Shown one piece after another: positions 1-31,285 of a stretch of 54,870 bases of DNA (position 1 is its first letter; the number at the start of each line of letters is the position of its first letter). The translations under genes were made by a program, and so were the position numbers. The notes beneath the pieces are model-generated. The model did no database searches and had not been told where the DNA came from. It saw only the letters and a program-made list of their open reading frames with translations. Source of the stretch: Candidatus Uhrbacteria bacterium. GTDB taxonomy: Bacteria; Patescibacteriota; Patescibacteriia; UBA9934; GWF2-40-263. The DNA lies in assembly GCA_016188495.1 (NCBI GenBank), contig JACPHU010000023.1, forward strand, positions 1 through 54,870, read 5' to 3'.

Positions 1-177
1 ATCCATGTTCGTCTTCGTGGAAAATACCTTGCTTATAAAATTCTCCCTGAACGACCAATAAAGACAAAAACAACGACTTGGGTTCTTGCGAACAAACAGG
101 TTACCAAACCAGCGATCGACCATCCTTGGAGAAAACAAATCACCAAAGACTGTACCCTCTCACAACTCACTCACTAG
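1..177 (+). CDS. 3' fragment of an IS transposase (rve/DDE integrase-type, ISNCY/IS481-like); the 5' part lies outside the window
   Basis: Frame 1 is open from the window edge to TAG 175-177 (...IHVRLRGKYLAYKILPERPIKTK...AIDHPWRKQITKDCTLSQLTH*). The tail resembles C-termini of integrase-core IS transposases and is followed by short direct repeats. Confidence 0.4.
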   Translation: MHVRLRGKYLAYKILPERPIKTKTTTWVLANKQVTKPAIDHPWRKQITKDCTLSQLTH

Positions 178-212
178 GACATTTCTAAATCCCTGGAAGT
201 AGGACATTTCTA
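175..212 (+). repeat. 13-nt direct repeat TAGGACATTTCTA (175-187 and 200-212), possibly sub-terminal repeats of the left IS end
   Basis: Exact duplication read directly, immediately after the transposase stop. Confidence 0.6.
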
Positions 213-324
213 TTTCCCGTTGACATTTTACACTAATTCTATTGACAAAATGCTGGTTTTATAGTATCTTTCGCCGTTACAAAAACTCTTTTTTAAGGCG
301 TTTTTTAAGCATGATTTTGTCATC

Positions 325-1233
325 ATGGTTAAAAAAGGCTTTATAAAGCCTGAAACGAAACCTAAACAAAAGAGGAAACGCATGGAGCTCCGAGTACCCA
401 GAGAAGGCCATATCTATCGTGACAGTGATGGCAGCGTGGTAGTCACGGTGCAAGGTGACAAAAGGCACAAAATCGAACAACTCAGGAATTTGCAATGCCT
501 GACTCCTGACTACGAACCAAGGTTACAAATATGGGAGAGAAGATTTTTTACACGAAGACTCTATCTCCCTGGAGAATACGAGGCTGCGCGTGCGCACCTG
601 TATCCATCGCCTGAGACGTTAGTCCTGGCCGCGAACGGATATACGGACTTCGTCCAGGCACCCGGAACGCCCAGCCAACAAGAGTATGTCGACTGGAGCC
701 AGGAGATGATCGAAGGGTTAATCCTGACCTTGCGTCAAAAAGTCCCAAACATGGGTATATCCCTGGTGCAGGGCAGTATCTTGCAGGGAATCGACCAAGC
801 CATTATCCAAGCGGGACTGAGACTAGAAGTTCCGATGCTGGGATTCAGTTGTCCCTCTTGGATGTTCGGGTTCGACGACGACGAAGAGGCGTTCCCAATC
901 TTTGTCGGAAAGGATCCCCAAGAGTATTCCAGATTTTTCGCACACGATCCGGACGTACTGTTGACCTTCAACGGATCAGATCAGTGCTTCCGCGAGGCTG
1001 TGCGGATGCTTGAACGCGGGAAGCTCGTGTTCCCGGTAGACATCCTTGACCTGATAAGTCGCGGGAATGGACCCGCGAGTTTCAATCCTGACGGAGGCAT
1101 GACCAATGCCTCAAGAGTTCTCAATAGACTTGTCCGGTTGGAAGACAGGCCTTTCTCGACGAACTGTCAAAACCGGCAAGACCGGCTCAAAAAATGGATA
1201 GACAGGGTCGCCACATCGATCCTAACTCGTTGA
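325..1233 (+). CDS. SLOG/LOG-like (YpsA / MoCo-carrier-like Rossmann) putative nucleotide-ligand-binding protein
   Basis: 302-aa ORF. The central pattern LVQGSILQGIDQAIIQAGLRLEVPMLGFSCPSW then DVLLTFNGSDQCFREAVRMLERGKLVFPV resembles SLOG/LOG superfamily G-x-GxD and GG-x-T-x-E strands. An alternative start at ATG 382 has a GAGGA RBS 5 nt upstream. Confidence 0.35.
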   Translation: MVKKGFIKPETKPKQKRKRMELRVPREGHIYRDSDGSVVVTVQGDKRHKIEQLRNLQCLTPDYEPRLQIWERRFFTRRLYLPGEYEAARAHLYPSPETLVLAANGYTDFVQAPGTPSQQEYVDWSQEMIEGLILTLRQKVPNMGISLVQGSILQGIDQAIIQAGLRLEVPMLGFSCPSWMFGFDDDEEAFPIFVGKDPQEYSRFFAHDPDVLLTFNGSDQCFREAVRMLERGKLVFPVDILDLISRGNGPASFNPDGGMTNASRVLNRLVRLEDRPFSTNCQNRQDRLKKWIDRVATSILTR

Positions 1234-1246
1234 CAACGACTTTTAC

Positions 1247-1290
1247 TTCCGGTCCAGCTTCTTCAAAAAGCGCTGGACCGGAACATTTTC
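1247..1290 (+). terminator. intrinsic terminator after the SLOG-like gene
   Basis: 12-bp perfect stem TTCCGGTCCAGC (1247-1258) / GCTGGACCGGAA (1272-1283) followed by CATTTTC. Confidence 0.6.
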
Positions 1291-1395
1291 AACTCCAGAG
1301 ACATACACCTCATAATTTTGAGGTCTATATCTCTCCTCACGAACAAATGCTCGCGAGGAATCGTTCTCTAAGTACCTACAAAAAAGGAGAAAATC

Positions 1396-2817
1396 GTGCT
1401 GAAATCTCGTGTATTATATCTGGTTGGCGGAAGCCTCAATCCATCTGGAAAACACCACAAAGAAATGGTGCAGATAATTCAACCCATCTGCACAGGAGAC
1501 GATCTGATCGTTGTCGTGCCCTGTGGTATGAGACCTGATAAAGACACGACCAATGACATTAGTCCTATTCATCGGGCAGCAATGTGCACCATGACATTTG
1601 CCGGAATGGATAGGGTGATCATCGACCTCTCTGACCTGGAGAATACTGAATTCACCCGGACATGGGATTTGGAAGAGCGCTACCAACGTCTCTATCCGAA
1701 CGCAAAAATTGTTCACGTCATCGGAGCCGACCTTATCAAAGGTGGGCGGGCCGGAAATTCAGAAATTCATACATGGTATAAGGGCCCTGATCTCTTGAAC
1801 AAATCTAATTTCCTCGTCTTTCCACGAGGAGAAGAGTTGGACAAGAACGATCTCCCTTACAACCACCGGATAATTGAAACCCAGATCCATGGATCGAGTA
1901 CAGAAATTCGCAAGCTTCGAATGGAACGCGAATCGATAGAGGACCTCGTCACTCCAGCTGTAGCTGAATATATAAACCGCTGGCATTTGTATACCGGACG
2001 GCCCTCTTCGTTTGAAGCGACCCAATTCTGTCCCAAAGGTCGCGCCGACGTCATCATTGATAGAAAGCAGCCTCAAGCCTTGGAAATCCTGAAGATCGTC
2101 GAGAGAGTATACTCATCCCGAACAGGTCCGATAGATCATCTCATCGTGATCGGCGGAGACGGTTTTATGCTGGACGCGATCAACAAATTCCATCACCGCT
2201 GTCTCCCCTTTTTGGGATTAAATGCCGGAACGGTTGGGCATCTACTCAATAACGGTGGAAATGAGACAATCGAACGCTGTCTTCAAGCTTCATCATTCCA
2301 CTTACATCAATCCCCGTTGCTCTACGCCCAGGCAACAGGAGAAGATGGGAAAACCCATTCCGTATATGCGTTCAATGATCTCTTCCTGCGTACAGACACG
2401 CAATCAGCTGGATGGATGCAGGTTTCTGTGAACAAAAAGGTTCGCTTTGAACGCATGATGGGAGATGGGCTCATGCTCTCCACTCCTGCCGGTTCCACTG
2501 GCTGGGCGTACAAAAAAGGAGCCACACCTGTCATGATCGGCACGCCGCAAATCGTTCTGACTGGCGACGGTGTCAGCGATGATCGAGGAATCCGTTGGGT
2601 CAGTGCACCTCTTTCCAATACAGCCATTGTGGAAGTGGATGTGTTGGAATCATGGCGTCCCATGATTCTTGTTGTGGATGGTCACGAAGACGAATCCATT
2701 GGACGAGTCAAAAACGTGATCATGAGACAATGCCATGCCCATGCGGTAGAGCTCACCTTCTTTCCGGAAACGAACCTTGCAGAAAAAATCACCCGCCTTC
2801 AATTCGGAGGCATCTAA
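1396..2817 (+). CDS. bifunctional nicotinate/nicotinamide mononucleotide adenylyltransferase - NAD+ kinase fusion
   Basis: GTG start with AAGGAG RBS. The N-terminal half has GGSLNPSGKHH (nucleotidyltransferase HxGH-type motif) and SSTEIRKL (ISSTxxR motif). The C-terminal half has LIVIGGDGFML (NAD kinase GGDG) and GDGLMLSTPAGSTGWAYKKGATPV. Confidence 0.75.
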   Translation: MLKSRVLYLVGGSLNPSGKHHKEMVQIIQPICTGDDLIVVVPCGMRPDKDTTNDISPIHRAAMCTMTFAGMDRVIIDLSDLENTEFTRTWDLEERYQRLYPNAKIVHVIGADLIKGGRAGNSEIHTWYKGPDLLNKSNFLVFPRGEELDKNDLPYNHRIIETQIHGSSTEIRKLRMERESIEDLVTPAVAEYINRWHLYTGRPSSFEATQFCPKGRADVIIDRKQPQALEILKIVERVYSSRTGPIDHLIVIGGDGFMLDAINKFHHRCLPFLGLNAGTVGHLLNNGGNETIERCLQASSFHLHQSPLLYAQATGEDGKTHSVYAFNDLFLRTDTQSAGWMQVSVNKKVRFERMMGDGLMLSTPAGSTGWAYKKGATPVMIGTPQIVLTGDGVSDDRGIRWVSAPLSNTAIVEVDVLESWRPMILVVDGHEDESIGRVKNVIMRQCHAHAVELTFFPETNLAEKITRLQFGGI

Positions 2818-2827
2818 CACCTCTTCC

Positions 2828-2868
2828 CTGCGGACCAGTGACCTCACTGATCCGCAGCGGAATTTTTA
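2828..2868 (+). terminator. terminator-like hairpin after the NMNAT-NADK gene
   Basis: CTGCGGA-C-CAGTG (2828-2840) pairs with CACTG-A-TCCGCAG (2845-2857), loop ACCT. The T-run 2863-2867 is slightly displaced. Confidence 0.45.
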
Positions 2869-2970
2869 CAAAGACCTGTGCTCAACCCATTGAGCCTAGA
2901 TCTTTCCTCGTAAGGAAAAGGACTTATGAGGACGTGATCTTTCCAATCGAAGTAGAAAGAAGGAAAAAAC

Positions 2971-4077
2971 ATGAACCAAAAACATCGACGGTTTCAAGGG
3001 TCTCTCATGGGTGTCCGAATCGGAGATACTCTGGGTATGCCCTGGGAATCCATGAGCCACGAGAGCATTCTCGAGGCGACTGGACCTCTTGGCATCACCA
3101 CCTTTTGGAATCCGCAACAGAGGAACGATGCTCCGCCATGGACGCAGGGACTTAAGAGTCTGAATCCTGGCGATTACACCGACGACTGGCAAATGACCAG
3201 GGCGGGGGTAAAAAGCTACATCCATTGCAGTGGTTTTGATCTCCACCATTTAGCACTCAGCTATTTGGAAGAGATGGAACTCTCCAGACTAGGATGGGGT
3301 GGAACCACCCTGGCGGGAATGGAACGGGTGAAGAACTGGATGAGTGAAGGCCACTCAAATCTTCCCGTCAGCCTGCTGTCACACCAACTCGACACGGGCT
3401 CAGGCAATGGCGTGGTGATGCGCATCGCTCCCATGGCGTTGATGAACTACCGTTTGTACCTGGAAAAAAGACATCGCTTTTCAGGCATTCCTACCCCATT
3501 GCAACATGTCATTTGGGAAGTAGGAGGCCTGACGCATCCAGACCCTCGAGCCACCATCGGCGCCTTTGCCGTGGCAAGCTTGATCGCAAAAATCGTCTCT
3601 TTCGACAACGTAGTAACCGACCAAAAAACGCTTCTGTGTTTGCTGGATGGAACCCTGCAAGAAGTTCTCTTTATGGAAGAGAACAAGTGCCGTACGTTTT
3701 TTTCGCAAATACAAGCAGAGAGGTTTTCATCACGCCTGGCACAGATCAGCCAAGCGATCATTTCTGGAATATCGGCAGACGAAGTCCGTACTCAATTTGG
3801 AACATCCAGTGTTACTCTTGAGTCTGCAGCGTTTTCGATCGCCACGTTCTTGCGGCATCCGACGGATTTCAAAGCCGCACTCAAGGAGGCGGTAGAAGCC
3901 GGAGGCGATACCGATACAAACGCGGCAATCGTGGGAAGTCTGGTAGGGGCCAATGTGGGCCTGCACGGAATTCCCAAAGAATGGGCGGCCTTCCGCGAAG
4001 ATTTTGCGGAAGCGGAACGTCTAGGGGTAAGCCTCTGGACGACCTGCCAAAGAATTCATCAACCCCACAGGAGATAA
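2971..4077 (+). CDS. ADP-ribosylglycohydrolase (ARH/DraG family)
   Basis: N-terminal GVRIGDTLGMPWE and C-terminal GGDTDTNAAIVGSLVGANVGLHGIPKEW are the family's characteristic metal-binding motifs. 368 aa. Confidence 0.8.
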   Translation: MNQKHRRFQGSLMGVRIGDTLGMPWESMSHESILEATGPLGITTFWNPQQRNDAPPWTQGLKSLNPGDYTDDWQMTRAGVKSYIHCSGFDLHHLALSYLEEMELSRLGWGGTTLAGMERVKNWMSEGHSNLPVSLLSHQLDTGSGNGVVMRIAPMALMNYRLYLEKRHRFSGIPTPLQHVIWEVGGLTHPDPRATIGAFAVASLIAKIVSFDNVVTDQKTLLCLLDGTLQEVLFMEENKCRTFFSQIQAERFSSRLAQISQAIISGISADEVRTQFGTSSVTLESAAFSIATFLRHPTDFKAALKEAVEAGGDTDTNAAIVGSLVGANVGLHGIPKEWAAFREDFAEAERLGVSLWTTCQRIHQPHRR

Positions 4078-5376
4078 GTGATGGACAAAAAAAAGAATCG
4101 TCATGTTCTGGAACCGATTGTCCGCAATCTGGCGGACATCGACTTCTACAAGCTGACGATGCTTCAATTTATCTGGTGGTTTTTCTCGAAAGAAGTCGTA
4201 ACGTTCCGTTTCAAAAACAGAACGGACGTTCAGCTTCTGGATTATATCGATCTGGATGAGCTCAAACGCCAGCTCGACCGTGTCACCAAAATGCGGTTTC
4301 CCAAATGGGCGACGGCGGAGCTGAAACGAAGATATAGCCACCTGTTCAGCGACAATTTTCTTAGCTGGTTAGGCGAGCTACGTCTTCCTCAGGCGAGCGT
4401 AGAAATCGTCGACGGAAATCTCCTATTGGAGGTCACGGGCCCATGGCCGGAAGTCATGCTCTGGGAAACGATTGCGATGTGCATCGTCAACCGAATGTAT
4501 AAACTGGCAAAAATGTCAGAGTTGAAACTCGAAGAAAAAGTTGTTCTTGTCGAGGGTCTTCATCGAGCAGAGGTAAAGTTTGAAAGACTTTCGAAATATC
4601 CAGATCTGGTTTTTGTAGATTTCAGCACCAGACGGCGACATAGTTATGAACATCAGGAAGCCGTCCTGCGCACTGCCATGCGGATGATCCCGAATCAACT
4701 TAAAGGCACGTCCAATGTACTACTGGGCCTACGGCTGAAACTGCCGCTTGTGGGCACCATGGCGCACGAGCTGCCCATGGCCTTCCAGGTTCTCTTCTGG
4801 GATGAGGACGAGAAGTCTGAACGACTCGTCTCACAGGCAAAACTCTGGAAAATGTGGGAGGAATTCTACGGCGGTGCCTTGACGATCGCCCTTCCGGATA
4901 CCTATGGCAACGATTTCGGACTTGAGGACTTCAAGCCGTTCGCTGCCAAGTGGGCTGGTCTGCGTCACGACTCAGGCGACCCGTTCGAGTTCGGCGAGAA
5001 GGTCATCGCGTTTTATAACTCGCTGGAGATCGACCCAAAAGAGAAGACGGTCGTCTTCTCCGACGGCCTCACCGATGAAACAATGATCCAATTGTGGATA
5101 CGATTCCACGACCGCATCAATCTCAGCTTCGGCTGGGGAACCCATATGGGCAATGACATGGGGTTTGATGTCTGGCCCGATGGTGACCGAGGTCTCAAAG
5201 CCTTGTCGATCGTGATGAAGTTGGTGGCTGTTTTGAAAGATGGCCGTATGGTCGGCACAGTCAAACTCTCCGACAACCCGAGCAAAGCCTCGGGTCCGCA
5301 AGAGATGATCGAGCGGATCATGCGCAAAACCGACTACGACTTCGCCGCGCACGAAACCGTGGCATGCGAAGTCTGA
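4078..5376 (+). CDS. pncB: nicotinate phosphoribosyltransferase
   Basis: DFYKLTMLQ near the N-terminus, then GTMAHE and RHDSGDP. The GTG start directly abuts the TAA of the upstream gene (4075-4080 TAAGTG), which suggests translational coupling. Confidence 0.85.
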   Translation: MMDKKKNRHVLEPIVRNLADIDFYKLTMLQFIWWFFSKEVVTFRFKNRTDVQLLDYIDLDELKRQLDRVTKMRFPKWATAELKRRYSHLFSDNFLSWLGELRLPQASVEIVDGNLLLEVTGPWPEVMLWETIAMCIVNRMYKLAKMSELKLEEKVVLVEGLHRAEVKFERLSKYPDLVFVDFSTRRRHSYEHQEAVLRTAMRMIPNQLKGTSNVLLGLRLKLPLVGTMAHELPMAFQVLFWDEDEKSERLVSQAKLWKMWEEFYGGALTIALPDTYGNDFGLEDFKPFAAKWAGLRHDSGDPFEFGEKVIAFYNSLEIDPKEKTVVFSDGLTDETMIQLWIRFHDRINLSFGWGTHMGNDMGFDVWPDGDRGLKALSIVMKLVAVLKDGRMVGTVKLSDNPSKASGPQEMIERIMRKTDYDFAAHETVACEV

Positions 5377-5390
5377 CCCTACAACTCTCT

Positions 5391-5485
5391 CCATGAACCC
5401 CTCGGTTCATGGCTTTTCTCCACCACACCGAGGTTTCTCTCGGATGGTGAAGGTGAAGAATGTTCGTTACAAAGGAATATCCATG
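5391..5485 (+). repeat. structured intergenic cassette, copy A (terminator-like hairpin + CTTTTCTCCACC + second hairpin + GGTGAAGAAT + RBS + ATG)
   Basis: hp1 is CCATGAACC (5391-5399) / GGTTCATGG (5404-5412). The inner stem is CCGAG (5428-5432) / CTCGG (5439-5443). GGTGAAGAAT lies at 5452-5461 and the AAAGGA RBS precedes ATG 5483. Confidence 0.7.
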
Positions 5486-6538
5486 AAAAAATATCCGAGA
5501 CATATCGTCGTATTCATCGATATTCCGGATCCTGATAATTTCGTCCTATTGATTGTTCTGGGAATGCTATTTCCCCTTGCAAAAATGCATGTAGTGATTA
5601 CGGGTCGCCCCGTTCACCCAAACCCGTCCAAGAAAATCAAAACGTGGGAATGGGATGCGAATTTTTCTGAAGATGTCCTGAAGGTCAACGCAGGTCGGAC
5701 AAGAAACCTGCTTAAAATCTTTAAGATGAGCGCGAAGCTCTACCATGGAGGGATTGCGCCCAGAACTCCCGTGCCGCATTGGATGCACTTCCATGAGTAT
5801 TACAGGCTGGCTGATATTGATCCTGTTGTGGCTCTGCACAACGGACAAATGGAAAGTCTGAGCAAGCTGGCAAAAGAGCTTCTGAAGCTAGACGACCAGT
5901 CTGTTGCCGTTGTCGTGGGTGGACCCATGACAGGCCTGGCACAGTTGGTCAATCTGAATCCGGATGTGGCGAAAAAATTCTCCGAAGTCCACGCGATGTT
6001 CGCCTCCTGGGGAACCACAGAGCTTGCGAGTTTTGACGGGACATCCCGCGGAAAGAAGCAATTCAACGTGGACTGTGATCCGCAAGCGGCCTTCCAGGTT
6101 CTGACGGGACTCACCTGCCCCATCTACCTATTGCCCACCGAGGTCACGCGCGTAAGCGAAATCGGATTCCAAAATCCGAAAGCTCTGTGCGAGATCATGG
6201 GGAACTCACGCACAGAAAAAGCGAGGCTTATCCTACGGCTGTACGAGCTGTGGCATACAGTCACCGTGGAGAAAAAACAAAAAACGAATCCGTCTGAAAT
6301 GCTGTTTATCCACGACATGTCCGCAGGGCTGAGTCTGTGTCCTGAACTTCGGGAAGCCATCTATCAGTTCACCCCTATCGAGATTGATTCCGTCCCGCAT
6401 CTGGCACACGAAGCCGAGCATTGGGGGGAAGTACTCATGCGTCCGACGAATCGGCAAACCAACCGTTTTTCCGCAACAGGACTCCAACCAAACGGCACGG
6501 AACACTATTTGAACGTTCTGCACAATCTGTTCGCTTGA
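5483..6538 (+). CDS. inosine-uridine-preferring nucleoside hydrolase (IUNH) family protein, divergent
   Basis: VVFIDIPDPDNFVLL (degenerate DxDxxxDD), GGPMTGLAQLV, QFNVDCDPQAAFQVL and IHDMSAG match the IUNH block order. I chose the start at ATG 5483 (AAGGA RBS). The longer ORF from 5393 would begin inside the terminator hairpin. Confidence 0.65.
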   Translation: MKKYPRHIVVFIDIPDPDNFVLLIVLGMLFPLAKMHVVITGRPVHPNPSKKIKTWEWDANFSEDVLKVNAGRTRNLLKIFKMSAKLYHGGIAPRTPVPHWMHFHEYYRLADIDPVVALHNGQMESLSKLAKELLKLDDQSVAVVVGGPMTGLAQLVNLNPDVAKKFSEVHAMFASWGTTELASFDGTSRGKKQFNVDCDPQAAFQVLTGLTCPIYLLPTEVTRVSEIGFQNPKALCEIMGNSRTEKARLILRLYELWHTVTVEKKQKTNPSEMLFIHDMSAGLSLCPELREAIYQFTPIEIDSVPHLAHEAEHWGEVLMRPTNRQTNRFSATGLQPNGTEHYLNVLHNLFA

Positions 6539-6551
6539 ACAAAAATCCTAT

Positions 6552-6646
6552 CCACGAACCATCGCGGTTCGTGACTTTTCTCCACCGATCCGAGATCAAC
6601 TCGGACGATGGAGGTGAAGAATCGTTCGCAAAAGGAGACATCCATG
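6552..6646 (+). repeat. structured intergenic cassette, copy B
   Basis: hp1 is CCACGAACC (6552-6560) / GGTTCGTG (6566-6573), then CTTTTCTCCACC, CCGAG..CTCGG, GGTGAAGAAT (6612-6621) and AAAGGAG RBS with ATG 6644. It aligns along its length with copy A. Confidence 0.7.
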
Positions 6647-7378
6647 TCGCTATGCCAAAAAATCAACGAATGGTGCAAACGTTTTGTAAGAAGCGTACGG
6701 AACTACACCGGTCTCTCTACCCAAAAGTCCGATGCTCGTTTTACGAAAGCAGATACCCTTTTGAAGGGTTTCCTCCAGGTGGAAGAATGGGACGGAGGCC
6801 TCTCTTTTCCGCTGGTGGTCGTCCGTGCCAGCGACTCGATCGTGGGACTGCTCTATGACGCGACCAACGATCGCATTCTGCTCGTCCGCCAGTACCGTGC
6901 GCCCATGGTTCGGGAAGACAATCCAGAGGGCGCCATCACAGAGCTCGTGGCCGGGCGTTTCGACGTGAATCTCGGACCCAAGGCGCTTCTCGTGAAGGAA
7001 GCTAAGGAGGAAGCCGGAGTCAAGATCACGGAAGACGAGGTCGAACTCATCAACCTGGGCGTACCCATGTCGCTCTCTGCCGGTGTTCTGACCGAACGCT
7101 GCTACGGCGGTTTCGCTGTCATTCATCCCGATCGTATCGCCGAGGGTGACGAGAACTACGGTGTGGATGAAGGTGAGAATATCTGTCGGGTCTGGATGAG
7201 CACCGAGAAGTTCATCTCCCCCAACACCATCCACGATTGCTGGCGCGTCTACGCCATGGCCCAGTTGCTGGCCCGTCGTCGTCTGGAAGCCAAGCTTGTT
7301 CAGTTGGAAGAGGAACTCAACAATCATCGAATCGATCGGATCGTACGAGCATCTGCTCCCCATGGACATGGATGCTAA
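6644..7378 (+). CDS. Nudix hydrolase, ADP-ribose pyrophosphatase-like
   Basis: Nudix box GRFDVNLGPKALLVKEAKEEAGV. Start at ATG 6644 with AAAGGAG 6 nt upstream. Confidence 0.7.
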   Translation: MSLCQKINEWCKRFVRSVRNYTGLSTQKSDARFTKADTLLKGFLQVEEWDGGLSFPLVVVRASDSIVGLLYDATNDRILLVRQYRAPMVREDNPEGAITELVAGRFDVNLGPKALLVKEAKEEAGVKITEDEVELINLGVPMSLSAGVLTERCYGGFAVIHPDRIAEGDENYGVDEGENICRVWMSTEKFISPNTIHDCWRVYAMAQLLARRRLEAKLVQLEEELNNHRIDRIVRASAPHGHGC

Positions 7379-7386
7379 TCTCTCTC

Positions 7387-7487
7387 CCCGTCCCCGAGTC
7401 TGACTCGGCACGACGGGACTTTTCATCGATCACCCACAGGTATGTGTGATCGATGCTGAAGACCACAAACAGAAGGATACCCTCGTG
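7387..7487 (+). repeat. structured intergenic cassette, copy C (diverged)
   Basis: The outer stem CCCGTC (7387-7392) / GACGGG (7412-7417) encloses CCGAGT..ACTCGG, followed by ACTTTTC. hp2 is CATCGATCAC (7424-7433) / GTGATCGATG (7446-7455). Then come CTGAAGACC, AAGGA RBS and GTG 7485. Confidence 0.55.
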
Positions 7488-8543
7488 AACATCCAACGCT
7501 CCTTTCAATCGTTGAAAATCGTTTCTTTAACCGTTGCTCTGCATGCGGTGAGAGGATTGCTTCGTTTGAGCGAAACGGAAGGTCAGACGACAGAAGCCAC
7601 AAAGCGTCCTATCGCCCACGGTTCCGGCCAAATGCGGGCTCAGTCGATCTCAATCCAACTCTCAGATCGTACGCGTTGCACGGCGGGATGTCGGTTTTGC
7701 ATCAGCCGAACCACGCCTGGAACCGCGAATGCGGAAGTTCGCAATCTCAAAATCTGCGACATGGACCGACTGCGCGTTGGCTTCAACTATGCCAAGCAGC
7801 TGGGTGCCACCCACGCTGTTTTGACAGGTCGAGCCGATCCCACGCAGGAGGATGAAATCTATCTGCTGAAGGTGGTGCAAACGGCCAGAGAGTATCTGCC
7901 ACTGGTGGACATGCACACCAACGGATTCCTACTCTTGGACGGCAAGTCCAAGGACTACATGCTCGAGCGACTTAGAAATGCAGGGCTCACCATGATCACC
8001 CTGTCGATCGCTCATCATGAGAATGAGAAGAATCGCGAGCTCATGATCCAGAAGCAGAGTGCCGCCTCCCTGATCAAGAGAGCGCGCGATCTGGGACTGT
8101 TGGTCCGAGTGTCGGTCGTCATCAATCGCCAGGGAATCGTGGACGTTGATGGTCTCATGGAATACATCCGAGAGCTCGGAAATCTCGGCGCCCAGATGGT
8201 CGTCGTACGCGAAGTCTGGCGACCGGAGGTCTACGGCGAGTGGAATACCGAGGTCTACCAGTGGAATCACGATAACTGGATCGACATCGGTCCCCTCCAG
8301 GAAGAGTTCCACCGGATCGCTTCCCAGAAAAACAACACGCATGGCTTGCGCGAAGGTAATCCACTCCCCTGGGGTACACCTGTATTCCTGGTAGGCGGCA
8401 TCTTCGAAGATCCCACACACGGCGTGAACGTGACCTTCGCTCGATGCGAAGAAGCCGTCGGGACGGTCATGAAGTCCATCGTTCACAAGCCAGATGGTCA
8501 CGGCTATCGCAATTGGGATCATAACGGAGATGTTCTCTACTGA
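7485..8543 (+). CDS. radical SAM enzyme of unassigned function (MoaA/viperin-like core plus a Trp-rich C-terminal extension)
   Basis: CTAGCRFC gives the CX3CX2C cluster motif, followed by HAVLTGRADPTQ, VDMHTNGFLL and ITLSIAHHE core strands. I chose GTG 7485 as the start by analogy with the RBS spacing in cassette copies A and B. The ORF is open from 7446 and an internal Met lies further downstream. Confidence 0.6.
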   Translation: MNIQRSFQSLKIVSLTVALHAVRGLLRLSETEGQTTEATKRPIAHGSGQMRAQSISIQLSDRTRCTAGCRFCISRTTPGTANAEVRNLKICDMDRLRVGFNYAKQLGATHAVLTGRADPTQEDEIYLLKVVQTAREYLPLVDMHTNGFLLLDGKSKDYMLERLRNAGLTMITLSIAHHENEKNRELMIQKQSAASLIKRARDLGLLVRVSVVINRQGIVDVDGLMEYIRELGNLGAQMVVVREVWRPEVYGEWNTEVYQWNHDNWIDIGPLQEEFHRIASQKNNTHGLREGNPLPWGTPVFLVGGIFEDPTHGVNVTFARCEEAVGTVMKSIVHKPDGHGYRNWDHNGDVLY

Positions 8544-8568
8544 TCTGATCCAGAGTCCAACAACCACT

Positions 8569-8682
8569 GGGTGAGCCCTGCTCGCCCCTTTTCTCAACAA
8601 GTGGAAATTTCTCAACTTGTTGAGGTGAAGAGAAATGAAAAATATGCGCCAGATACCATAAACACCGGAGGAACACGTAGTG
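8569..8682 (+). repeat. structured intergenic cassette, copy D
   Basis: hp1 is GGGTGAGC (8569-8576) / GCTCGCCC (8580-8587), followed by CTTTTCTCAAC. hp2 is CTCAACAAGT (8593-8602) / ACTTGTTGAG (8615-8624). Then come GTGAAGAGAA, GGAGG RBS and GTG 8680. Confidence 0.6.
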
Positions 8683-9747
8683 CCTCAAAATATCATGTAC
8701 ATCGGCGAATTCGGAAATGATCCGGATGAAGAAAGTTCCCTTCTGTTTTTATTGGGTTTGGTCAGACTCAAACTCGTGAAGCTGCTTGCAGTCATTGCCA
8801 ATCGTTCTCCCGCGATCATGCGGGCGCGTCTGGCCAAAGGAACCTTGGAGATGCTCGGTTTTCCACAGATTCCCGTTATTCAAGGCACAGACTGCGGACA
8901 ACATCGCCAGGAGGATGACCGCATCCAATTTGCGGCCACGTATCTGAGCGACGCGCCAGAATTTCCCAAATTGGATGCCTTCTGGGACTTGCTTTCCCAG
9001 GCACAGGATCATTCTGTTGCTCTCGTGTGTGCATCGGGCCTGACAGATATCGCTCTGCTTCTGGCTCGCAACACCACACACTCCAAAGAACGACTGCGTC
9101 TGTTCAAACAAAAAATCGCCCGAGTCTCAATCATGGGAGGGGTGGTCAACGATCAGAATCAAATCCTTCTGGATGAAGATGGTCGGGTGATGCCTTCGTG
9201 GGATGCGACCAACAATCAGCACGACCGCATCGCCGAGTACGTGTATACGCAACTCCAGCGAATGGAAATCGAACTGATTGTTGTGACCAAACAGGCAGCG
9301 TATGCCGCACCTGTCCCACGCGAAATGTATCGGAACCTCGCCCGTCGGCATCATCCGGTGGGCGTGAGACTCGAACGCATCCAAAAAGGAATGATCCAAC
9401 ATCTGTGGTGGAGATGTAATCTTCCACCTGAATCCCCTGCACGAGATGGTCTTCCGCCGGAGTTGGGAACCCAGTGGTTCTCCAATGCCTTCTGCCGAGG
9501 GAAAAACCTTTCAAACATAAAACCGACGGACGAAATCTGGGAATATGTTGAGGTATTCAACCTCTATGATCCGATGGCTGTCATGGCGGCCATCCCGGAA
9601 ATCTCTGGGCAACATTTCGATCCGATCTTGATAAATGGAGGAAAAGTACAGGTAATCGGCATGAACCGTCAGTACCATCAAGTCTCTAAACCAGCAAAGA
9701 CGGCTGGCTTCCTGGAAGCCGGTATGCTCAGAGGGTTATTAAAATAA
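8680..9747 (+). CDS. IUNH-fold nucleoside hydrolase-like protein with a degenerate N-terminal Asp cluster
   Basis: YIGEFGNDPDEESSLLFL (the first Asp of DxDxxxDD is replaced), CASGLTDIALLLA, VSIMGGVV, ATNNQHDRIAEYVY and LYDPMAVMAAI follow the IUNH block order. Confidence 0.55.
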   Translation: MPQNIMYIGEFGNDPDEESSLLFLLGLVRLKLVKLLAVIANRSPAIMRARLAKGTLEMLGFPQIPVIQGTDCGQHRQEDDRIQFAATYLSDAPEFPKLDAFWDLLSQAQDHSVALVCASGLTDIALLLARNTTHSKERLRLFKQKIARVSIMGGVVNDQNQILLDEDGRVMPSWDATNNQHDRIAEYVYTQLQRMEIELIVVTKQAAYAAPVPREMYRNLARRHHPVGVRLERIQKGMIQHLWWRCNLPPESPARDGLPPELGTQWFSNAFCRGKNLSNIKPTDEIWEYVEVFNLYDPMAVMAAIPEISGQHFDPILINGGKVQVIGMNRQYHQVSKPAKTAGFLEAGMLRGLLK

Positions 9748-9904
9748 CACCCCCCGCGAGCCAAGTTGACGGGGTATTTACTCTGAAGGAATAAACGCTC
9801 CCCTGATACTCTCAGGGGCTATTACGCGAGAGAGTGAAAGAATTCATTTCGCTCCCTCACTAAGTAGTCAATGAATCGTTCTTTAAACAAACAAGGAGCA
9901 ACGT

Positions 9905-11929
9905 ATGAGTGTCTCGATTCAGAAAGTACAAGGTCGTCAAAAAAGTTTAGGATTTGCCCGCGTAGCAGCGGCCACGTTCTGGACCAAGCCGATGGGTGTA
10001 TCCGAAAATCTCGAGAAACATTGGGAGATGGCACAGTGTGTCGACGATGAACATATTCAGCTGATGGCGTTTCCAGAACTCGGACTATCCGGCTACGGGT
10101 GTCGCAATGCGTTTCGCGAACGCGCCCTTCAAATCGCTTCTCTGGAGGCTCTACAGGAATTCTGTGGTCTTACCAAAACCAGCACGGCCACCTTTGTTCT
10201 GGGATTGCCTTTGGCACTCAATCGTCTATTCAATGTGGCAGCGGTTGTCAATCAAGGTCGTGTCATCGCCTTCATCCCGAAAAGCTTCCTCGCTGCTCGC
10301 AGTGAATGGCAAGAGGACGAATGGTTTTCCCCCGCAAGCGAACTCCAGACCAATCAAGTGAAACTTCCTTGGCAAGACGAACCCGTTCCTATCGGCACGG
10401 ATATTCTCATATCGGTATGCGGTAAGGATGCAGAAGAACAATTTATCATGGGAGTAGAGATCTGCGAGGATGGTTGGCAGGCCAACTCCCCTGGAGACCG
10501 TCATGCGCACAACGGCGCAACGGTCATCGTGAATCTCTCAGCATCCAACTGGGTACTTGGAAAAGACCAATGGCGTCTGATTCAATTCCCTGCCAACTCC
10601 GGTCGCCAGAAGTCCGCTTATATCTATGTGACAATGGCAGGCGACTCGACCTCCAGCGTTGTGTGGGATGGACAATGTTTTATCGCTGAGGATGGGAACA
10701 TTCTTGCACAGACGACGCGTTGGAAAAAACCCAGGGAAAGTGAGCTCATCACGACGGACGTCGATATTCAGAAACTTCACCATGATCGCGAGATGGACGG
10801 TGGATGGGGAGAAGCAACACGCCTGAATCAGCATCCATACAGACAAGTTCAAGCGAACGTGCGTTCTTGGGAAGTCGACAATCTGCGTCGACCGCTTCCT
10901 CGTTTGCCTTTTGTTCCCAAAGATCCAAACGTCATGCGCAAAGTGGGTGAAGAGCTGTTCAATGCTCTGGCCCAGGGCGTGATCGGACGTCTGTGGCACG
11001 TTGGCAAAGGCCAGCCGTTTGATGCCTACATGGGACTCTCTGGCGGACTGGATTCCGCGCTTGCCTTCCTGGTGAGCGTTTATGCCTACGACCAGATGGG
11101 GTGGAATCGCAAACACCTGCATGCCGTGCGACTGCCGGGACCTGCTTCTGGCAAACGGACGCAGGACAATTCCCTCAAGCTTGCCAAAGCTCTGGGAACC
11201 GGGATCCATACGGCGAACATCACTCGTCTGGCGACCCAGGCTCTGCGCGACGCGGGACACGAGCCTTGTTGGCAATGTTTGCAATGCGAAAACGCCCAGG
11301 CGCGAGCCAGGACGTATATTCTCAAAACGATGGGGTTTAATCTCGGAACCGGGGATATGAGCGAGGCGGCCAAGGGCTGGTGTACCGAAGGCGGTGATCA
11401 ATCCAGTCACTTTCACGTCATTGCAAACATCCCCAAGACGCTCGTGCGATATCTGGTCAGGTACTACATCGAGCATCTGGCAGGTGATGTGAAAACAAAA
11501 AAGACGCTCGAAAGCATCCTCAACACGCTCATTTCGCCAGAGCTCGTGAAGGTCGAACCTGGCCAGCAGATCCAGTCCTCTGAAGATAAAGTCGGCCCTT
11601 ATGAGCTGACAGACTTCTTCATGAACCACATGCTGCGAACAGGGGCGGATCCTGCAAGGATCGCATTCCTGGCCAAAATCGCCTTCAGTCGCAAGGAGTC
11701 TGAGGGAGATATCGTCTATGACTCTGCAACCATCCTCAAATGGCTGCGAGACTTCTATGTCCAGTTCGGCAGAGCACAGTTCAAAAGAAATGCGAGTCCG
11801 GATTTTGTCCTCGTCGCTACTCTGGGACTTGGTGCACACGACAAGTGGCGCTGGCCTTCTGATGGTTCCATGCAAATATGGACGGATGAAGTAGAACTTC
11901 TCCAGGAAATAGAGAAGAACAGCGACTGA
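9905..11929 (+). CDS. nadE: glutamine-dependent NAD+ synthetase (CN-hydrolase domain + NAD synthase domain)
   Basis: N-terminal FPELGLSGYGC and VEICEDGW (nitrilase-type Glu and Cys). C-terminal GLSGGLDSA PP-loop. 674 aa. Confidence 0.85.
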   Translation: MSVSIQKVQGRQKSLGFARVAAATFWTKPMGVSENLEKHWEMAQCVDDEHIQLMAFPELGLSGYGCRNAFRERALQIASLEALQEFCGLTKTSTATFVLGLPLALNRLFNVAAVVNQGRVIAFIPKSFLAARSEWQEDEWFSPASELQTNQVKLPWQDEPVPIGTDILISVCGKDAEEQFIMGVEICEDGWQANSPGDRHAHNGATVIVNLSASNWVLGKDQWRLIQFPANSGRQKSAYIYVTMAGDSTSSVVWDGQCFIAEDGNILAQTTRWKKPRESELITTDVDIQKLHHDREMDGGWGEATRLNQHPYRQVQANVRSWEVDNLRRPLPRLPFVPKDPNVMRKVGEELFNALAQGVIGRLWHVGKGQPFDAYMGLSGGLDSALAFLVSVYAYDQMGWNRKHLHAVRLPGPASGKRTQDNSLKLAKALGTGIHTANITRLATQALRDAGHEPCWQCLQCENAQARARTYILKTMGFNLGTGDMSEAAKGWCTEGGDQSSHFHVIANIPKTLVRYLVRYYIEHLAGDVKTKKTLESILNTLISPELVKVEPGQQIQSSEDKVGPYELTDFFMNHMLRTGADPARIAFLAKIAFSRKESEGDIVYDSATILKWLRDFYVQFGRAQFKRNASPDFVLVATLGLGAHDKWRWPSDGSMQIWTDEVELLQEIEKNSD

Positions 11930-11943
11930 TCATGAAAGAATCA

Positions 11944-11972
11944 ACCGCTCACACACGTGTGAGCGGTTTTTA
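11944..11972. terminator. bidirectional intrinsic terminator between convergent nadE and dtd
   Basis: ACCGCTCACA (11944-11953) / TGTGAGCGGT (11958-11967) followed by TTTTTAT. Confidence 0.7.
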
Positions 11973-12416
11973 TATATCCAAAATAATGGTCGTAGGACCG
12001 TCATTGATAAGAGCGACTTCCATCATCTGACCAAACCTCCCTGTCTCTACGGTGATTCCAAGTGTTCGAATCTTCTCAATCACCGCTTCATAAAACGGGA
12101 TAGCCTTTTCAGGACGGGCCGAGGTAATGAAACTCGGACGGTTTCCCTCAGAGCAATCCCCATAGAGAGTAAACTGGGAAACCAAAAGAATCGAGCCCTC
12201 TATATCCTGGACGCTGCGCGACATTTTCCCTTCTTCATTTTCAAAAATACGAAGCTGTACAAGCTTCCGCGCCATTTTTTCAATCTTATCTTCGGTATCA
12301 TCCTGATGAATCGCTAAAAACACCAGCAACCCCTGGCTAATGGATCCAACCATTTCCCCCTCAACTCTGACAGAAGCTTGTTTCACTCGTTGTATGACTG
12401 CGCGCATAGTCTTCAT
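11970..12416 (-). CDS. dtd: D-aminoacyl-tRNA deacylase
   Basis: MRAVIQRVKQASVRVEGEMVGSISQGLLVFLAI... is the typical Dtd N-terminus. 148 aa. Confidence 0.85.
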   Translation of the reverse strand: MKTMRAVIQRVKQASVRVEGEMVGSISQGLLVFLAIHQDDTEDKIEKMARKLVQLRIFENEEGKMSRSVQDIEGSILLVSQFTLYGDCSEGNRPSFITSARPEKAIPFYEAVIEKIRTLGITVETGRFGQMMEVALINDGPTTIILDI

Positions 12417-12427
12417 TTCTTATATTT

Positions 12428-31268: not shown

Positions 31269-31285
31269 ATGTTGTTGTAAAAATT

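Follow-up and report, generated by a model that had tools for sequence, protein, structure and literature searches.

Gene content and layout of the locus

The window analysed here is a stretch of 54,870 nucleotides from Candidatus Uhrbacteria, near the start of which nine genes follow the end of an insertion sequence (IS):

1..177, +, ISNCY-family transposase gene, 3′ end only, the window starting inside the gene (tail homology)
175..225, +, IS right end, with subterminal direct repeats TAGGACATTTCTA at 175-187 and 200-212 and terminal ...CCCGTTGACA
242..270, +, promoter-like site TTGACA-17-TATCTT (10/12 consensus matches)
382..1233, +, SLOG-fold protein of a small uncharacterised family (ORF1, open from 325; AF2 model, Foldseek)
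1396..2817, +, NMNAT (NadD-like)-NAD kinase fusion (TIGR00482, NF003406, PF01513)
2971..4077, +, ADP-ribosylglycohydrolase, nearest ARH3 and MJ1187 (PF03747, ARH3 structures)
4078..5376, +, nicotinate phosphoribosyltransferase PncB (TIGR01514, NAPRTase 1ybe)
5391..5462, +, intercistronic RNA element, copy 1 (covariance model, 67.8 bits)
5483..6538, +, divergent IUNH-fold ribohydrolase (ORF open from 5393; PF01156)
6553..6623, +, intercistronic RNA element, copy 2 (69 bits; MFE z-score -4.1)
6644..7378, +, ADPRase-like Nudix hydrolase (ORF open from 6608; YffH/AdpP)
7399..7465, +, possible weak, divergent RNA element copy before the radical SAM gene (12.5 bits, E 0.15)
7446..8543, +, radical SAM enzyme of an uncharacterised family (start uncertain; PF04055)
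8566..8634, +, intercistronic RNA element, copy 3 (68.5 bits; an 8-codon mini-ORF comes next)
8680..9747, +, XopQ/HopQ1-like IUNH-fold hydrolase lacking a secretion N-terminus (NF041355, XopQ structures)
9905..11929, +, glutamine-dependent NAD+ synthetase NadE (NF002730)
11943..11968, both strands, GC-rich hairpin of 11 bp, T-runs on both strands (bidirectional terminator; the NadE and Dtd genes converge on it)

All nine ORFs that a preliminary description had listed at 325-11929 are present there on the plus strand, tightly packed and in one direction, and the TAA of the ADP-ribosylglycohydrolase gene (4075-4077) does directly abut the GTG of the PncB gene (4078-4080). Profile searches run for each ORF bore out the family calls, the SLOG assignment of ORF1 being reached by fold only. 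Three genes likely start downstream of the point from which their ORFs are open, namely ORF1 (382, open from 325), the IUNH-like gene (5483, open from 5393) and the Nudix gene (6644, open from 6608), and the radical SAM gene likely starts at 7446 or slightly later, its conserved core beginning at ~7596. The cluster is also GC-richer than its surroundings, as described (51.6% versus 46.2% for the rest of the window; GC3 0.50-0.67 versus 0.22-0.58 outside the cluster). LeuRS, IF-2, RNase Y and ProRS are encoded in the window as well.

The transposase tail, correctly placed by the preliminary description ~150 nt upstream of the cluster, is an ISNCY-family C-terminus 49-78% identical to the tails of nine metagenomic loci; its full-length relatives L029 and L027 match NF033594 (5e-117 and 2e-116, respectively). 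The repeat TAGGACATTTCTA occurs twice, versus 0.04 expected, and homology between IS copies ends directly after GTTGACA, placing the IS end at ~225. The promoter-like site, 17 nt downstream of this end and the sole plus-strand site upstream of the operon, is the probable operon promoter, and the nine genes would be read as one transcript from just past the IS end to the strong terminator after nadE.

A scan of genome contigs returned 19 related loci, each in a MAG that is Patescibacteria by its title or its placement (Uhr-, Falkow-, Komeili-, Buchananbacteria and others); two of the loci repeat L001 and L002, which leaves 17 distinct loci.

NAD(P) synthesis

The proposal that PncB, NMNAT, NadE and NAD kinase form a full Preiss-Handler route from nicotinate to NADP is upheld by homology, the basis of the substrate assignments for all operon enzymes. 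PncB scores 276 bits against TIGR01514 (cut-off 269.55) and matches the NAPRTase profile (5e-44) and the NAPRTase structure 1ybe (1.5e-73), while NadE, with its CN_hydrolase and NAD_synthase domains, reaches 568 bits against NF002730 (2e-170; cut-off 473). In the fusion protein, an N-terminal NadD-type half (TIGR00482, 1e-21, residues 9-199), below the NadD equivalog cut-offs, precedes the NAD kinase half (NF003406, 1e-40, residues 224-471; PF01513, 2e-7). This family comprises 77 clusters, all organism-named ones being from Patescibacteria, and its alignment keeps the GGDG and ISSTEIR-type motifs, with GxHH standing where HxGH would be expected. Related triple fusions also carry a separate canonical NadD, and the fused NMNAT domain could therefore be regulatory in some lineages. 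As is well supported by homology, PncB would convert nicotinate and PRPP to NaMN, the NMNAT half would form NaAD, NadE would amidate it to NAD+ and the NAD kinase half would produce NADP+. Genes for PncA, NrtR, Prs and a transporter are all absent within the 55-kb window.

Proposed ADP-ribose recycling

The ADP-ribosylglycohydrolase matches PF03747 at 3.7e-52 and ARH3 structures at 6e-15. The preliminary description had recognised two IUNH proteins, of which the first stands: it matches IU_nuc_hydro (PF01156, 2.5e-14), conserves the DxPDPDNF motif and shares 49% identity with a homologue from the L018 NAD cluster. The second matches this profile more weakly (5.7e-7) and NF041355 at 6e-42, but scores 144 bits there where the cut-off is 500; given its matches to the XopQ structures 4kl0, 4p5f and 7jlu (~7e-29, ~30% identity), it is better described, on sequence, as XopQ-like. 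The Nudix protein reaches only 1e-3 against the NUDIX profile, 6e-7 against YffH/AdpP and 3e-3 against ADPR pyrophosphatase structures; its homologues at 12 distinct related loci are 36-52% identical, and the family alignment conserves AGRFD...(K/A)E-x2-EE-x-G, in which (K/A)E-x2-EE-x-G is the catalytic part of the Nudix box.

The SLOG/LOG-like designation of ORF1 is supported by fold but not at the level of sequence. Its family has 73 representatives in 1.84 billion proteins, Pfam gave no match and hhalign against LSDAT was negative, whereas the AF2 model (pLDDT 91) resembles LOG proteins and the TRPM MHR1/2 SLOG domain in Foldseek with probability 1.0 (E-values to 2e-6; 2e-6 to 5e-4 across LOG, Moco-carrier protein and TRPM SLOG domain matches). 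The NAD clusters of both L009 and L018 encode homologues of ORF1, which is a candidate nucleotide phosphoribohydrolase or ADPR-type ligand binder.

Family membership thus upholds the earlier metabolic logic, in which the ADP-ribosylglycohydrolase, Nudix protein and ribohydrolases make up an ADP-ribose and ribosyl breakdown side. The ARH3-like and XopQ-like enzymes would liberate ADP-ribose from conjugates in which ADP-ribosyl is O-glycosidically bound, the Nudix enzyme would cleave ADP-ribose to AMP and ribose-5-phosphate, and the IUNH-like and SLOG/LOG-like proteins would convert pyridine or purine nucleosides and nucleotides to bases plus ribose or ribose-5-phosphate. The ribosyl units and pyridine rings could then re-enter PRPP-dependent NaMN synthesis.

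A repeated intercistronic RNA element

Several cistrons are preceded by an RNA element consisting of a GC-rich hairpin followed by a CUUUUCUCC tract paired with the GAGGUGAAGA Shine-Dalgarno region. The window holds three copies, versus 0.01 expected; a further stretch at 7399..7465, scored with filters off, has hairpins visible in the sequence, which is only suggestive of a fourth. The covariance model yielded 17 plus-strand matches (E < 1e-4), all intergenic within NAD clusters and located before radical SAM, NadE, Nudix, XopQ-like, IUNH and SLOG genes. The covariation score is 0.406, whereas shuffles gave 0.19 (0/500 reached 0.406) and slid controls 0.09-0.15. New here is a hairpin, covarying and specific to this operon, that masks the Shine-Dalgarno region and recurs before many cistrons; by pairing with that region, the CUUUUCUCC tract would throttle the translation of several cistrons.

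The radical SAM enzyme

The radical SAM protein matches PF04055 above the gathering score (4.5e-8) and belongs to a family of 151 homologues (47-95% identity among the 120 matches listed), encountered here only in Patescibacteria MAGs. It conserves CxxxCxxC and a C-terminal KSIVHKPDGHGYRNWDHNGD motif and lacks auxiliary-cluster cysteines. We found it inside the NAD operon at all 17 distinct loci, where it is the best-conserved operon protein (47-73% identity versus 24-64% for PncB and NadE), and a distant homologue (25% identity) adjoins nadE in another lineage. The protein thus appears to be an integral, co-regulated operon member, and this conserved family, Patescibacteria-only in our data, is new.

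Among solved structures, MoaA and viperin come nearest, and by analogy with these enzymes the most likely reaction class would be radical chemistry at the ribose of a nucleotide of the NAD or ADP-ribose type. It is conceivable, albeit unlikely, that the radical SAM enzyme and the variant fusion, together with the His_Phos_1 and Prs-like proteins seen in relatives, produce or alter a modified nucleotide derived from NAD or ADPR, which would serve as a lineage-specific cofactor or as a signal and which the SLOG and LSDAT proteins would bind or hydrolyse. The high conservation of the radical SAM enzyme, its missing auxiliary-cluster cysteines, its nucleotide-ribose-modifying nearest folds, its share in the operon-specific translational element and its distant relative beside nadE are consistent with such a role, as are the non-canonical GxHH of the fusion and the likeness of ORF1 to the ADPR-binding TRPM2 SLOG domain, SLOG domains being known to sense or hydrolyse nucleotide ligands. 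However, the MoaA and viperin likeness concerns the generic radical SAM core (TM ~0.5-0.67, 14-19% identity), no product can be inferred, and ordinary salvage and recycling explain all the other genes. Moreover, the operon of L034 has no radical SAM gene while its remaining genes are the same; the enzyme is therefore not needed for the core pathway.

Conservation and origin of the operon

A core of the fusion, PncB, Nudix, radical SAM and NadE genes recurs across the 17 distinct loci, the ADP-ribosylglycohydrolase, XopQ-like, first IUNH and ORF1 families are patchy among relatives, and NrtR, PncA, a Prs-like gene, His_Phos_1 and LSDAT appear as extra NAD-regulon genes. Synteny with L001 extends through NadE-Dtd-GNAT-FMN_red, with flank proteins 49-68% identical, on par with the cluster proteins; in L002 the context is NadE-GNAT...ComEC-UDPG dehydrogenase-LeuRS. 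We therefore consider it probable that the operon belongs to a Patescibacteria (CPR) bacterium whose nearest relatives are Candidatus Uhrbacteria MAGs, that it is resident there and inherited vertically, and that it serves NAD(P) salvage and the recycling of ADP-ribose. Inheritance has not been purely vertical, as PncB is 64% identical to that of L003 versus 35% to L001, and NadE 60% to L017 versus 40% to L001; these discordant closest relatives indicate that genes were exchanged or replaced within the operon.

The preliminary description had instead suggested a mobile, self-contained NAD(P) cassette beside an IS, countering NAD+-depleting defence as a cellular analogue of phage NARP. The adjacent transposase, the 5-point GC excess, the gene flux evident from patchy accessory genes and discordant core-gene relatives, and the kinship with XopQ, an enzyme proven to act against TIR signalling and able to block type VI Thoeris as well (bioRxiv 10.64898/2026.06.15.732069), would accord with this origin, which we nevertheless regard as highly improbable. 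The same gene set and order at a syntenic chromosomal place in related MAGs largely refutes it. The GC excess is real, yet all 16 loci compared show an operon richer in GC than its flanks, the difference ranging from 1.5 to 8.5 points (sign test p ~3e-5), in genomes spanning 33% to 67% GC and in step with host GC, so the excess is a property of the operon itself and does not signal recent transfer. The IS lies on one side only, the window showing neither a second IS copy nor an integrase or flanking repeats, and is an incidental neighbour. Searches of IMG/VR and phage records turned up no radical SAM relatives, and no PADLOC model matched any of the nine operon proteins. The phage systems also differ, being two-gene systems of other enzyme families (NARP1, Adps and Namat; NARP2, Nampt and Nmnat; NARP3, PnuC and NadR). 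The operon is best read as chromosomal and common to a group of tiny host-dependent bacteria, in line with the symbiont scavenging role that had been offered as the alternative.

A related idea, likewise highly improbable, is that the XopQ-like, ARH3-like, SLOG and Nudix proteins mainly degrade ADPR-based immune signals of the TIR-made, 2′cADPR type and feed the products into NAD, quenching signals and restoring NAD for an episymbiont in conflict with its host or with phages. Degradation of ADPR signals by phage proteins, which thereby fuel NAD synthesis, has been reported. ARH3 cleaves, in poly(ADP-ribose), the linkage type that XopQ cleaves in 2′cADPR. XopQ itself hydrolyses the 1′′-2′ ribose-ribose bond of 2′cADPR to give ADPR (bioRxiv 10.64898/2026.06.15.732069), and the window protein is a clear homologue. 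Its score far below the XopQ equivalog cut-off and its modest identity, however, mean that XopQ specificity is not transferable to it; the gene occurs in only three of the 17 distinct related loci (L011, L017 and L018) besides the window, and the chromosomal, housekeeping-like operon is not linked to TIR, Thoeris or other defence genes. The embedding of a XopQ-like hydrolase and a SLOG protein in NAD metabolism is new.

Gene content and layout

Nine open reading frames on the plus strand (325-11929), separated by intergenic gaps of 0-160 nt, make up the NAD cluster. Profile searches (Pfam, NCBIfam) bore out the family assignments made in the preliminary description, with the first product, ORF1, belonging to the SLOG group at the fold level only, and the junction at 4075-4080 indeed consists of a TAA directly abutting a GTG.

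Features in and around the NAD cluster (window coordinates)
1-177, C-terminus of an ISNCY-family transposase
242-270, promoter-like site, the single one, 17 nt past the end of the insertion sequence (IS)
325-11929, plus strand, nine-gene NAD cluster
5391-5462, plus strand, RNA element copy 1, before the IUNH-like gene
6553-6623, plus strand, RNA element copy 2, before the Nudix gene
7399-7465, weak copy of the RNA element
8566-8634, plus strand, RNA element copy 3, before the XopQ-like gene
8680-9747, plus strand, XopQ-like gene
11943-11968, strong bidirectional terminator, the only one, 3′ of nadE

The genes are predicted to encode the complete line from nicotinate through NaMN, NaAD and NAD to NADP, as had been proposed earlier. 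PncB passes the curated threshold for nicotinate phosphoribosyltransferase (NAPRTase; TIGR01514, 276.1 bits against a cut-off of 269.55), its nearest solved structure being the NAPRTase 1ybe (1.5e-73), and NadE is of the glutamine-dependent type (NF002730, 568 bits against 473), with the CN-hydrolase and NAD_synthase Pfam domains both present. Both halves of the fusion protein score below the equivalog cut-offs. Its NMNAT half is NadD-type (TIGR00482, 1e-21; 77.8 bits, under the cut-off of 112.45) and carries the SSTEIR motif, with the canonical HxGH replaced by GxHH throughout the fusion family. The NAD kinase (NADK) half matches NF003406 (1e-40), exceeds the gathering score of PF01513 and contains the GGDG, LNAGTVGHLL and AGSTGWA motifs, with a score (139 bits) below the equivalog cut-off of 211. 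The GxHH fusion is represented by 77 clusters of proteins, and all those with an organism name are from Patescibacteria. Separately, proteins P0255-P0257 (762-769 aa) combine a MazG-like domain, a canonical NadD with HxGH, a degenerate-motif NMNAT-like domain and an NAD kinase, in that order; this predicted architecture suggests that in some lineages the NADK-fused NMNAT-like domain may lack catalytic activity or serve regulation.

Among the remaining enzymes, the ADP-ribosylglycohydrolase (ARH) matches its profile at 4e-52, with ARH3 and MJ1187 as the closest solved structures, and the first IUNH-fold protein is divergent (E 2.5e-14). The Nudix protein matches its profile weakly (1e-3; YffH/AdpP type, 6e-7) and scores 29 bits against the ADP-ribose pyrophosphatase family TIGR00052, where the cut-off is 79.55. 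Its Nudix box reads G-x5-L-x7-KEAKEEAGV as compared with GX5EX7REUXEEXGU, so that the catalytic EE pair is kept and the first E and the R are replaced.

A proposed build-and-recycle pathway

Judging by family functions, the operon would pair synthesis with recycling. The ARH3-like and XopQ-like enzymes would release ADP-ribose (ADPR) from O-glycosidic ADP-ribosyl linkages, the Nudix protein would convert it to AMP and ribose-5-phosphate, and the IUNH-like and SLOG/LOG-like proteins would cut the N-glycosidic bonds of nucleosides and nucleotides of the pyridine or purine type; the loop would be closed by Prs and PncA in the relatives. Patescibacteria represent much of the diversity of bacteria, have for the most part not been cultured, obtain building blocks from their hosts and, as far as is generally known of the group, lack de novo cofactor synthesis. 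An operon that both builds and recycles fits such a host-dependent life. To our knowledge, the upkeep of the NAD pool in these bacteria has hardly been studied, and no description of this cluster was found in the literature on LSDAT, radical SAM and NAD operons, on NAD salvage in CPR bacteria or on this gene combination. The operon offers a concrete, testable picture, in which a complete nicotinate-to-NADP line is joined to an ADP-ribose/ribosyl recycling line.

The nearest known arrangement is the NrtR-type Preiss-Handler regulon of many bacteria (pncA-pncB-nadD-nadE with prs and a Nudix ADPR pyrophosphatase), with which the cluster shares PncB, a NadD-type NMNAT, glutamine-dependent NadE and an ADPRase-like Nudix protein in one operon. 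The likeness extends to the relatives, where NrtR, PncA and a Prs-like gene lie at the 5′ end of the cluster or inside it; the NrtR gene itself is present in eight related loci (L002, L003, L006, L008, L010, L021, L033 and L034). In contrast to that regulon, the window copy lacks NrtR, PncA and Prs, its NMNAT is fused to an NAD kinase and bears the GxHH motif, it adds a radical SAM enzyme, a SLOG protein, an ARH3-like protein and two IUNH-fold proteins, and a conserved hairpin that sequesters the Shine-Dalgarno (SD) region lies between its cistrons. The cluster thus works like a member of this kind of Preiss-Handler and ADPR-recycling regulon with unusual additions, namely the GxHH fusion, the radical SAM enzyme, a new SLOG family, the XopQ-like hydrolase and the riboregulatory element. 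Taken as a whole, an under-studied lineage here carries out an ordinary function with several new parts, among them a radical SAM family of high conservation, the new SLOG family and the XopQ-like hydrolase.

Conservation in Patescibacteria and the question of mobility

The preliminary description had taken the cluster for a mobile cassette, on the grounds that it adjoins an IS and differs in composition from the backbone. Both observations are correct. The first 177 bases do encode a transposase tail, identified through full-length relatives: the 58-residue fragment had no match by NCBIfam, Pfam or plasmid tblastn, and an exact DNA search in metagenomes found none, after which a protein-based scan yielded the relatives. 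Comparison with nine related IS copies places the IS end at about 225, with two subterminal TAGGACATTTCTA repeats and a terminus reading ...CCCGTTGACA. The cluster is also GC-richer than the rest of the window (51.6% against 46.2%), with raised GC3.

The wider distribution speaks against mobility. Scanning an alignment of the radical SAM family against 185,579 species genomes returned 19 loci, two of them repeats of the syntenic comparators L001 and L002, which leaves 17 distinct ones. All belong to Patescibacteria-type metagenome-assembled genomes (MAGs; Uhr-, Falkow-, Komeili-, Buchanan- and Parcubacteria, with a few generic "uncultured" titles), and in all 17 the radical SAM gene sits among NAD genes. 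A core of NMNAT-NADK (fused or as two genes), PncB, a Nudix-like protein, the radical SAM enzyme and NadE recurs across related loci, with ARH, XopQ-like, IUNH1 and ORF1-family genes present in subsets. Relatives also hold genes for which tblastn found no counterpart in the window: NrtR, PncA, an LSDAT-type SLOG protein, a His_Phos_1 protein directly upstream of the radical SAM gene, a divergent Prs between the radical SAM gene and nadE, and a fusion of an NDT-like with a Nudix domain.

Around the cluster, the window is ordinary chromosome (Dtd, GltB-like, GNAT, FMN reductase, peptidases, UDP-glucose dehydrogenase, LeuRS, IF-2, RNase Y, ProRS). In L001, from the Uhrbacteria MAG BH28, NadE, Dtd, GNAT and FMN reductase follow in the order of the window, the flanking proteins being 49-68% identical, and L002 shares NadE-GNAT...ComEC-UDPG dehydrogenase-LeuRS. 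The IS flanks the cluster on the 5′ side only, and the 3′ side is occupied by Dtd and housekeeping genes. As for composition, in each of the 16 related loci tested the NAD cluster exceeds its own flanks in GC, by 1.5-8.5 points, over flanks of 33%-67% GC, and the excess scales with the GC content of the host; because it recurs in all 16, it is inherent to the operon whatever the lineage and no evidence of recent transfer. The gene-neighbourhood comparison thus shows essentially what the preliminary description had set against its own proposal, an operon that is common among relatives and unconnected with mobility. The operon has not been static, for the closest relatives differ from gene to gene (PncB is 64% identical to that of L003 as compared with 35% to that of the syntenic L001, and NadE is 60% identical to that of L017), which, together with the patchy accessory genes, shows that Patescibacteria have exchanged or replaced genes inside the operon.

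Most of the nine related IS copies (L023-L031) carry a promoter-like TTGAC(A/T)-N17-TAnnnT 15-25 nt past the IS end, which suggests either that the IS inserts just upstream of promoters or that an IS-terminal -35 hexamer builds hybrid promoters.

Two minus-strand ORFs in the rest of the window also deserve mention. The first (247 aa, 12428-13171), between Dtd and the GltB-like gene and outside the NAD cluster, has no Pfam match and, with its strikingly low GC (38%, GC3 0.22), departs further in composition than any other gene of the window; the second (1280 aa, 27507-31349) has no NCBIfam match and is typical of the large lineage-specific surface proteins of these bacteria.

Comparison with phage and defence systems

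A role in counter-defence, the other part of the earlier proposal, found no backing in the comparisons made. No members of the radical SAM family were found in IMG/VR or in 50,697 phage records, none of the nine proteins matched a PADLOC defence model, and PHROGs gave generic superfamily matches only. Phages are known to restore NAD+ by NARP1 (Adps and Namat), NARP2 (Nampt and Nmnat) or NARP3 (PnuC and NadR), and none of these pairs is present in the window. The cluster resembles them in that NAD+ is rebuilt from breakdown products and that PRPS-like and PRTase-like folds are shared at the superfamily level; however, the NARP systems are two-gene, phage-borne and nicotinamide-based, whereas the cluster is chromosomal, comprises nine genes, starts from nicotinate and includes NadE and NADK. 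Prs-like protein and PncB were considered as a NARP1-type pair and dropped, PncB being a standard, bona fide NAPRTase and not Namat-like; the Prs-like protein of the relatives, absent from the window, is a divergent Prs with no specific evidence for Adps. The known phage NAD-restoring systems and this cluster are unrelated in architecture. The cluster lies outside the phage NARP systems, the PADLOC defence systems and the MoaA and XopQ equivalog families, and the finding adds no new counter-defence island.

A repeated hairpin element pairing with the Shine-Dalgarno region

Between its cistrons, the operon carries a repeated RNA element that begins with a GC-rich, terminator-like hairpin, followed by the U-rich tract CUUUUCUCC. 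In a long second hairpin, this tract on the 5′ side pairs with GAGGUGAAGA on the 3′ side, the SD region directly before the start codon. The pattern occurs three times in the window, against 0.01 expected, and also in L011 and L017, immediately 5′ of XopQ-like start codons. A covariance model recovered 17 plus-strand copies (E < 1e-4) in the window and eight loci (L002, L003, L005, L006, L010, L011, L017 and L018), all of them intergenic and within NAD clusters and none in the flanks, preceding rSAM, NadE, Nudix, XopQ-like, IUNH and SLOG genes. Pairing in the alignment, itself fitted to the model, covers 87.6% of cells as compared with 74.7% in shuffles, and the covariation score is 0.406 against 0.19 in shuffles (0.406 was reached in 0 of 500) and 0.09-0.15 in slid controls; double changes occur at twelve pairs of this model-fitted alignment. 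The element gives direct evidence for co-regulation of the radical SAM gene and the accessory hydrolases with the NAD genes. It may be a new cis-regulatory RNA, confined to a single metabolic operon.

Hairpins of this kind might instead be DNA operators or attC-like recombination sites, which we judge unlikely given strongly strand-asymmetric scores, conserved G-U pairs and a 3′ arm that is the SD region before start codons. Among RNA regulators, the element is most like FourU-type and other SD-occluding hairpins, with which it shares the U-rich tract pairing to the SD region right before the start codon. It differs from them in being repeated up to three or four times per operon, in the preceding terminator-like hairpin and in its conservation, with covariation, across genomes of 45-67% GC. 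An Rfam search of window positions 1-12600 matched no riboswitch or other family, the element included. Candidate triggers of this riboregulatory element are temperature, a ligand, a protein and coupling to translation upstream; its long, regular stem speaks against a classical aptamer.

Eight-codon mini-ORFs (5458-5484 and 8632-8658) begin right after the sequestered SD of copies 1 and 3, and the former closes with ATGA, which overlaps the likely start codon of the IUNH gene at 5483; they may reflect translational coupling via a leader peptide. A further motif, GAATCGTTC(T/G)nnAA, lies about 25-35 nt upstream of the start codons of NMNAT-NADK (1358-1371), Nudix (6619-6632) and NadE (9873-9886), and occurs elsewhere in the window once only, on the other strand.

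The radical SAM enzyme

The radical SAM enzyme is the best-conserved gene product of the operon. Its CTAGCRFC motif is invariant in 24 aligned sequences, and its score against PF04055 (33.9 bits; gathering threshold 29.5) places it in the radical SAM superfamily. We found 151 homologues, and among the 120 matches listed identities are 47-95%, all named ones being Patescibacteria MAGs; an exact-protein look-up of the longest ORF, whose start codon is wrong, returned no record. Apart from CxxxCxxC, cysteine conservation is limited to two positions, of which one is nearly invariant and the other variable, and the C-terminal beta domain is unique, with the motif KSIVHKPDGHGYRNWDHNGD.

By profile, the nearest solved relatives are MoaA (E 1e-6) and viperin (E 0.1), and the AlphaFold2 model (pLDDT 89.8) is closest to MoaA, SkfB, viperin and BlsE (TM 0.5-0.67), whose substrates are mostly nucleotide ribose or sugar, SkfB acting on a peptide. 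MoaA (a GTP 3′,8-cyclase) and viperin (a CTP dehydratase), which share the CxxxCxxC core, are the best matches by profile and fold and both act on nucleotide ribose, at 14-19% identity to our protein. Unlike MoaA, the enzyme lacks the C-terminal cysteines of the auxiliary [4Fe-4S] cluster, and it scores 27.9 bits against TIGR02666 (cut-off 284), outside the MoaA family.

As a working proposal drawn from genomic context and nearest folds, the enzyme may transform the ribose of an NAD- or ADPR-type nucleotide by radical chemistry. It is an accessory step outside the core pathway, since at least one operon of this type (L034) lacks it. A replacement for PncA was considered and dropped, as PncA and the radical SAM enzyme co-occur in most loci. 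A more ambitious reading strikes us as improbable: that the enzyme performs a new radical step on an NAD- or ADP-ribose-type nucleotide and that, with the SLOG, XopQ-like and ARH3-like proteins and under the control of a dedicated riboregulatory element, the operon goes beyond salvage, either making a lineage-specific NAD-derived cofactor or signal, or returning ribosyl-ribose ADPR derivatives (2′cADPR-like immune signals, poly- or oligo-ADPR) to NAD(P) in host-dependent Patescibacteria.

In seven relatives (L009, L012, L014, L015, L016, L019 and L020), a His_Phos_1 phosphatase/mutase, weakly CobC-like, lies directly upstream of the radical SAM gene, and a divergent Prs-like protein (TIGR01251, 111-125 bits; cut-off 113) is encoded near it and nadE in L009, L012-L015 and L021. 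This bracketing hints that the radical SAM step is linked to ribose-phosphate handling. A distant homologue (25% identity) with the same N- and C-terminal architecture is found in another lineage, on the minus strand of a 1.5-Mb contig (L033, 14042-14995), where it is convergent to nadE and adjoins an NrtR-PncA-fusion-PncB-NadE operon; the tie between this type of enzyme and NAD genes may thus be wider than the close family.

The XopQ-like hydrolase and the SLOG-fold protein

The second IUNH-fold protein is XopQ-like (NF041355, 6e-42; XopQ structures, about 7e-29), at about 30% similarity. With the XopQ/HopQ1 type III effectors, which are 2′cADPR O-glycosidases, it shares the IUNH-derived fold and the family, and the acidic N-terminal cluster D/E-x3-D-x-D-(D/E)-E is kept across CPR homologues. 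Its score of 144 bits against NF041355, where the equivalog cut-off is 500, leaves it outside the effector family proper; in contrast to the effectors, it is encoded inside the NAD operon of a non-pathogen.

XopQ-like genes in NAD operons (all lacking the secretion N-terminus)
Window, 8680-9747
L011, 5245-6279
L017, about 8836-9884
L018, 4323-5555

The window protein begins directly at the hydrolase domain, with no N-terminal secretion region. According to a June 2026 preprint (bioRxiv 10.64898/2026.06.15.732069), XopQ cleaves 2′cADPR, an immune signal of plants and bacteria, to ADPR, which makes the XopQ-like gene the most suggestive link to the immunity idea of the preliminary description. 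Against that link stand the low similarity, the presence of XopQ-like genes in few related loci and the lack of linked defence genes. The NAD-operon homologues may represent the housekeeping context from which the effector family came, and could so reveal its ancestry.

For ORF1, the earlier SLOG/LOG assignment held at the level of the fold and failed at that of the sequence family, where Pfam gave no match. Its AlphaFold2 model (pLDDT 91) matches, in Foldseek and with a probability of 1.0, both LOG proteins (TM normalised to target 0.54-0.61) and the SLOG domain that binds ADPR at the N-terminus of TRPM channels; Moco-carrier proteins are matched too. The predicted fold is accordingly the Rossmann-like one of the LOG/SLOG superfamily (cytokinin-type nucleotide phosphoribohydrolases, TRPM MHR1/2 and LSDAT ADPR-binding domains), from which ORF1 differs by an extra N-terminal beta-rich segment and by the lack of LSDAT profile similarity. 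The LOG motif PGGxGTxxE was not found in it, hhalign gave a probability of 0.3% against LSDAT, a profile search of the PDB was likewise negative, and one of 32 family members matches LSDAT_prok (E 0.022). The family counts 73 representatives among 1.84 billion proteins. In L002, L006 and L010, LSDAT_prok proteins take the 5′ operon position equivalent to that of ORF1.
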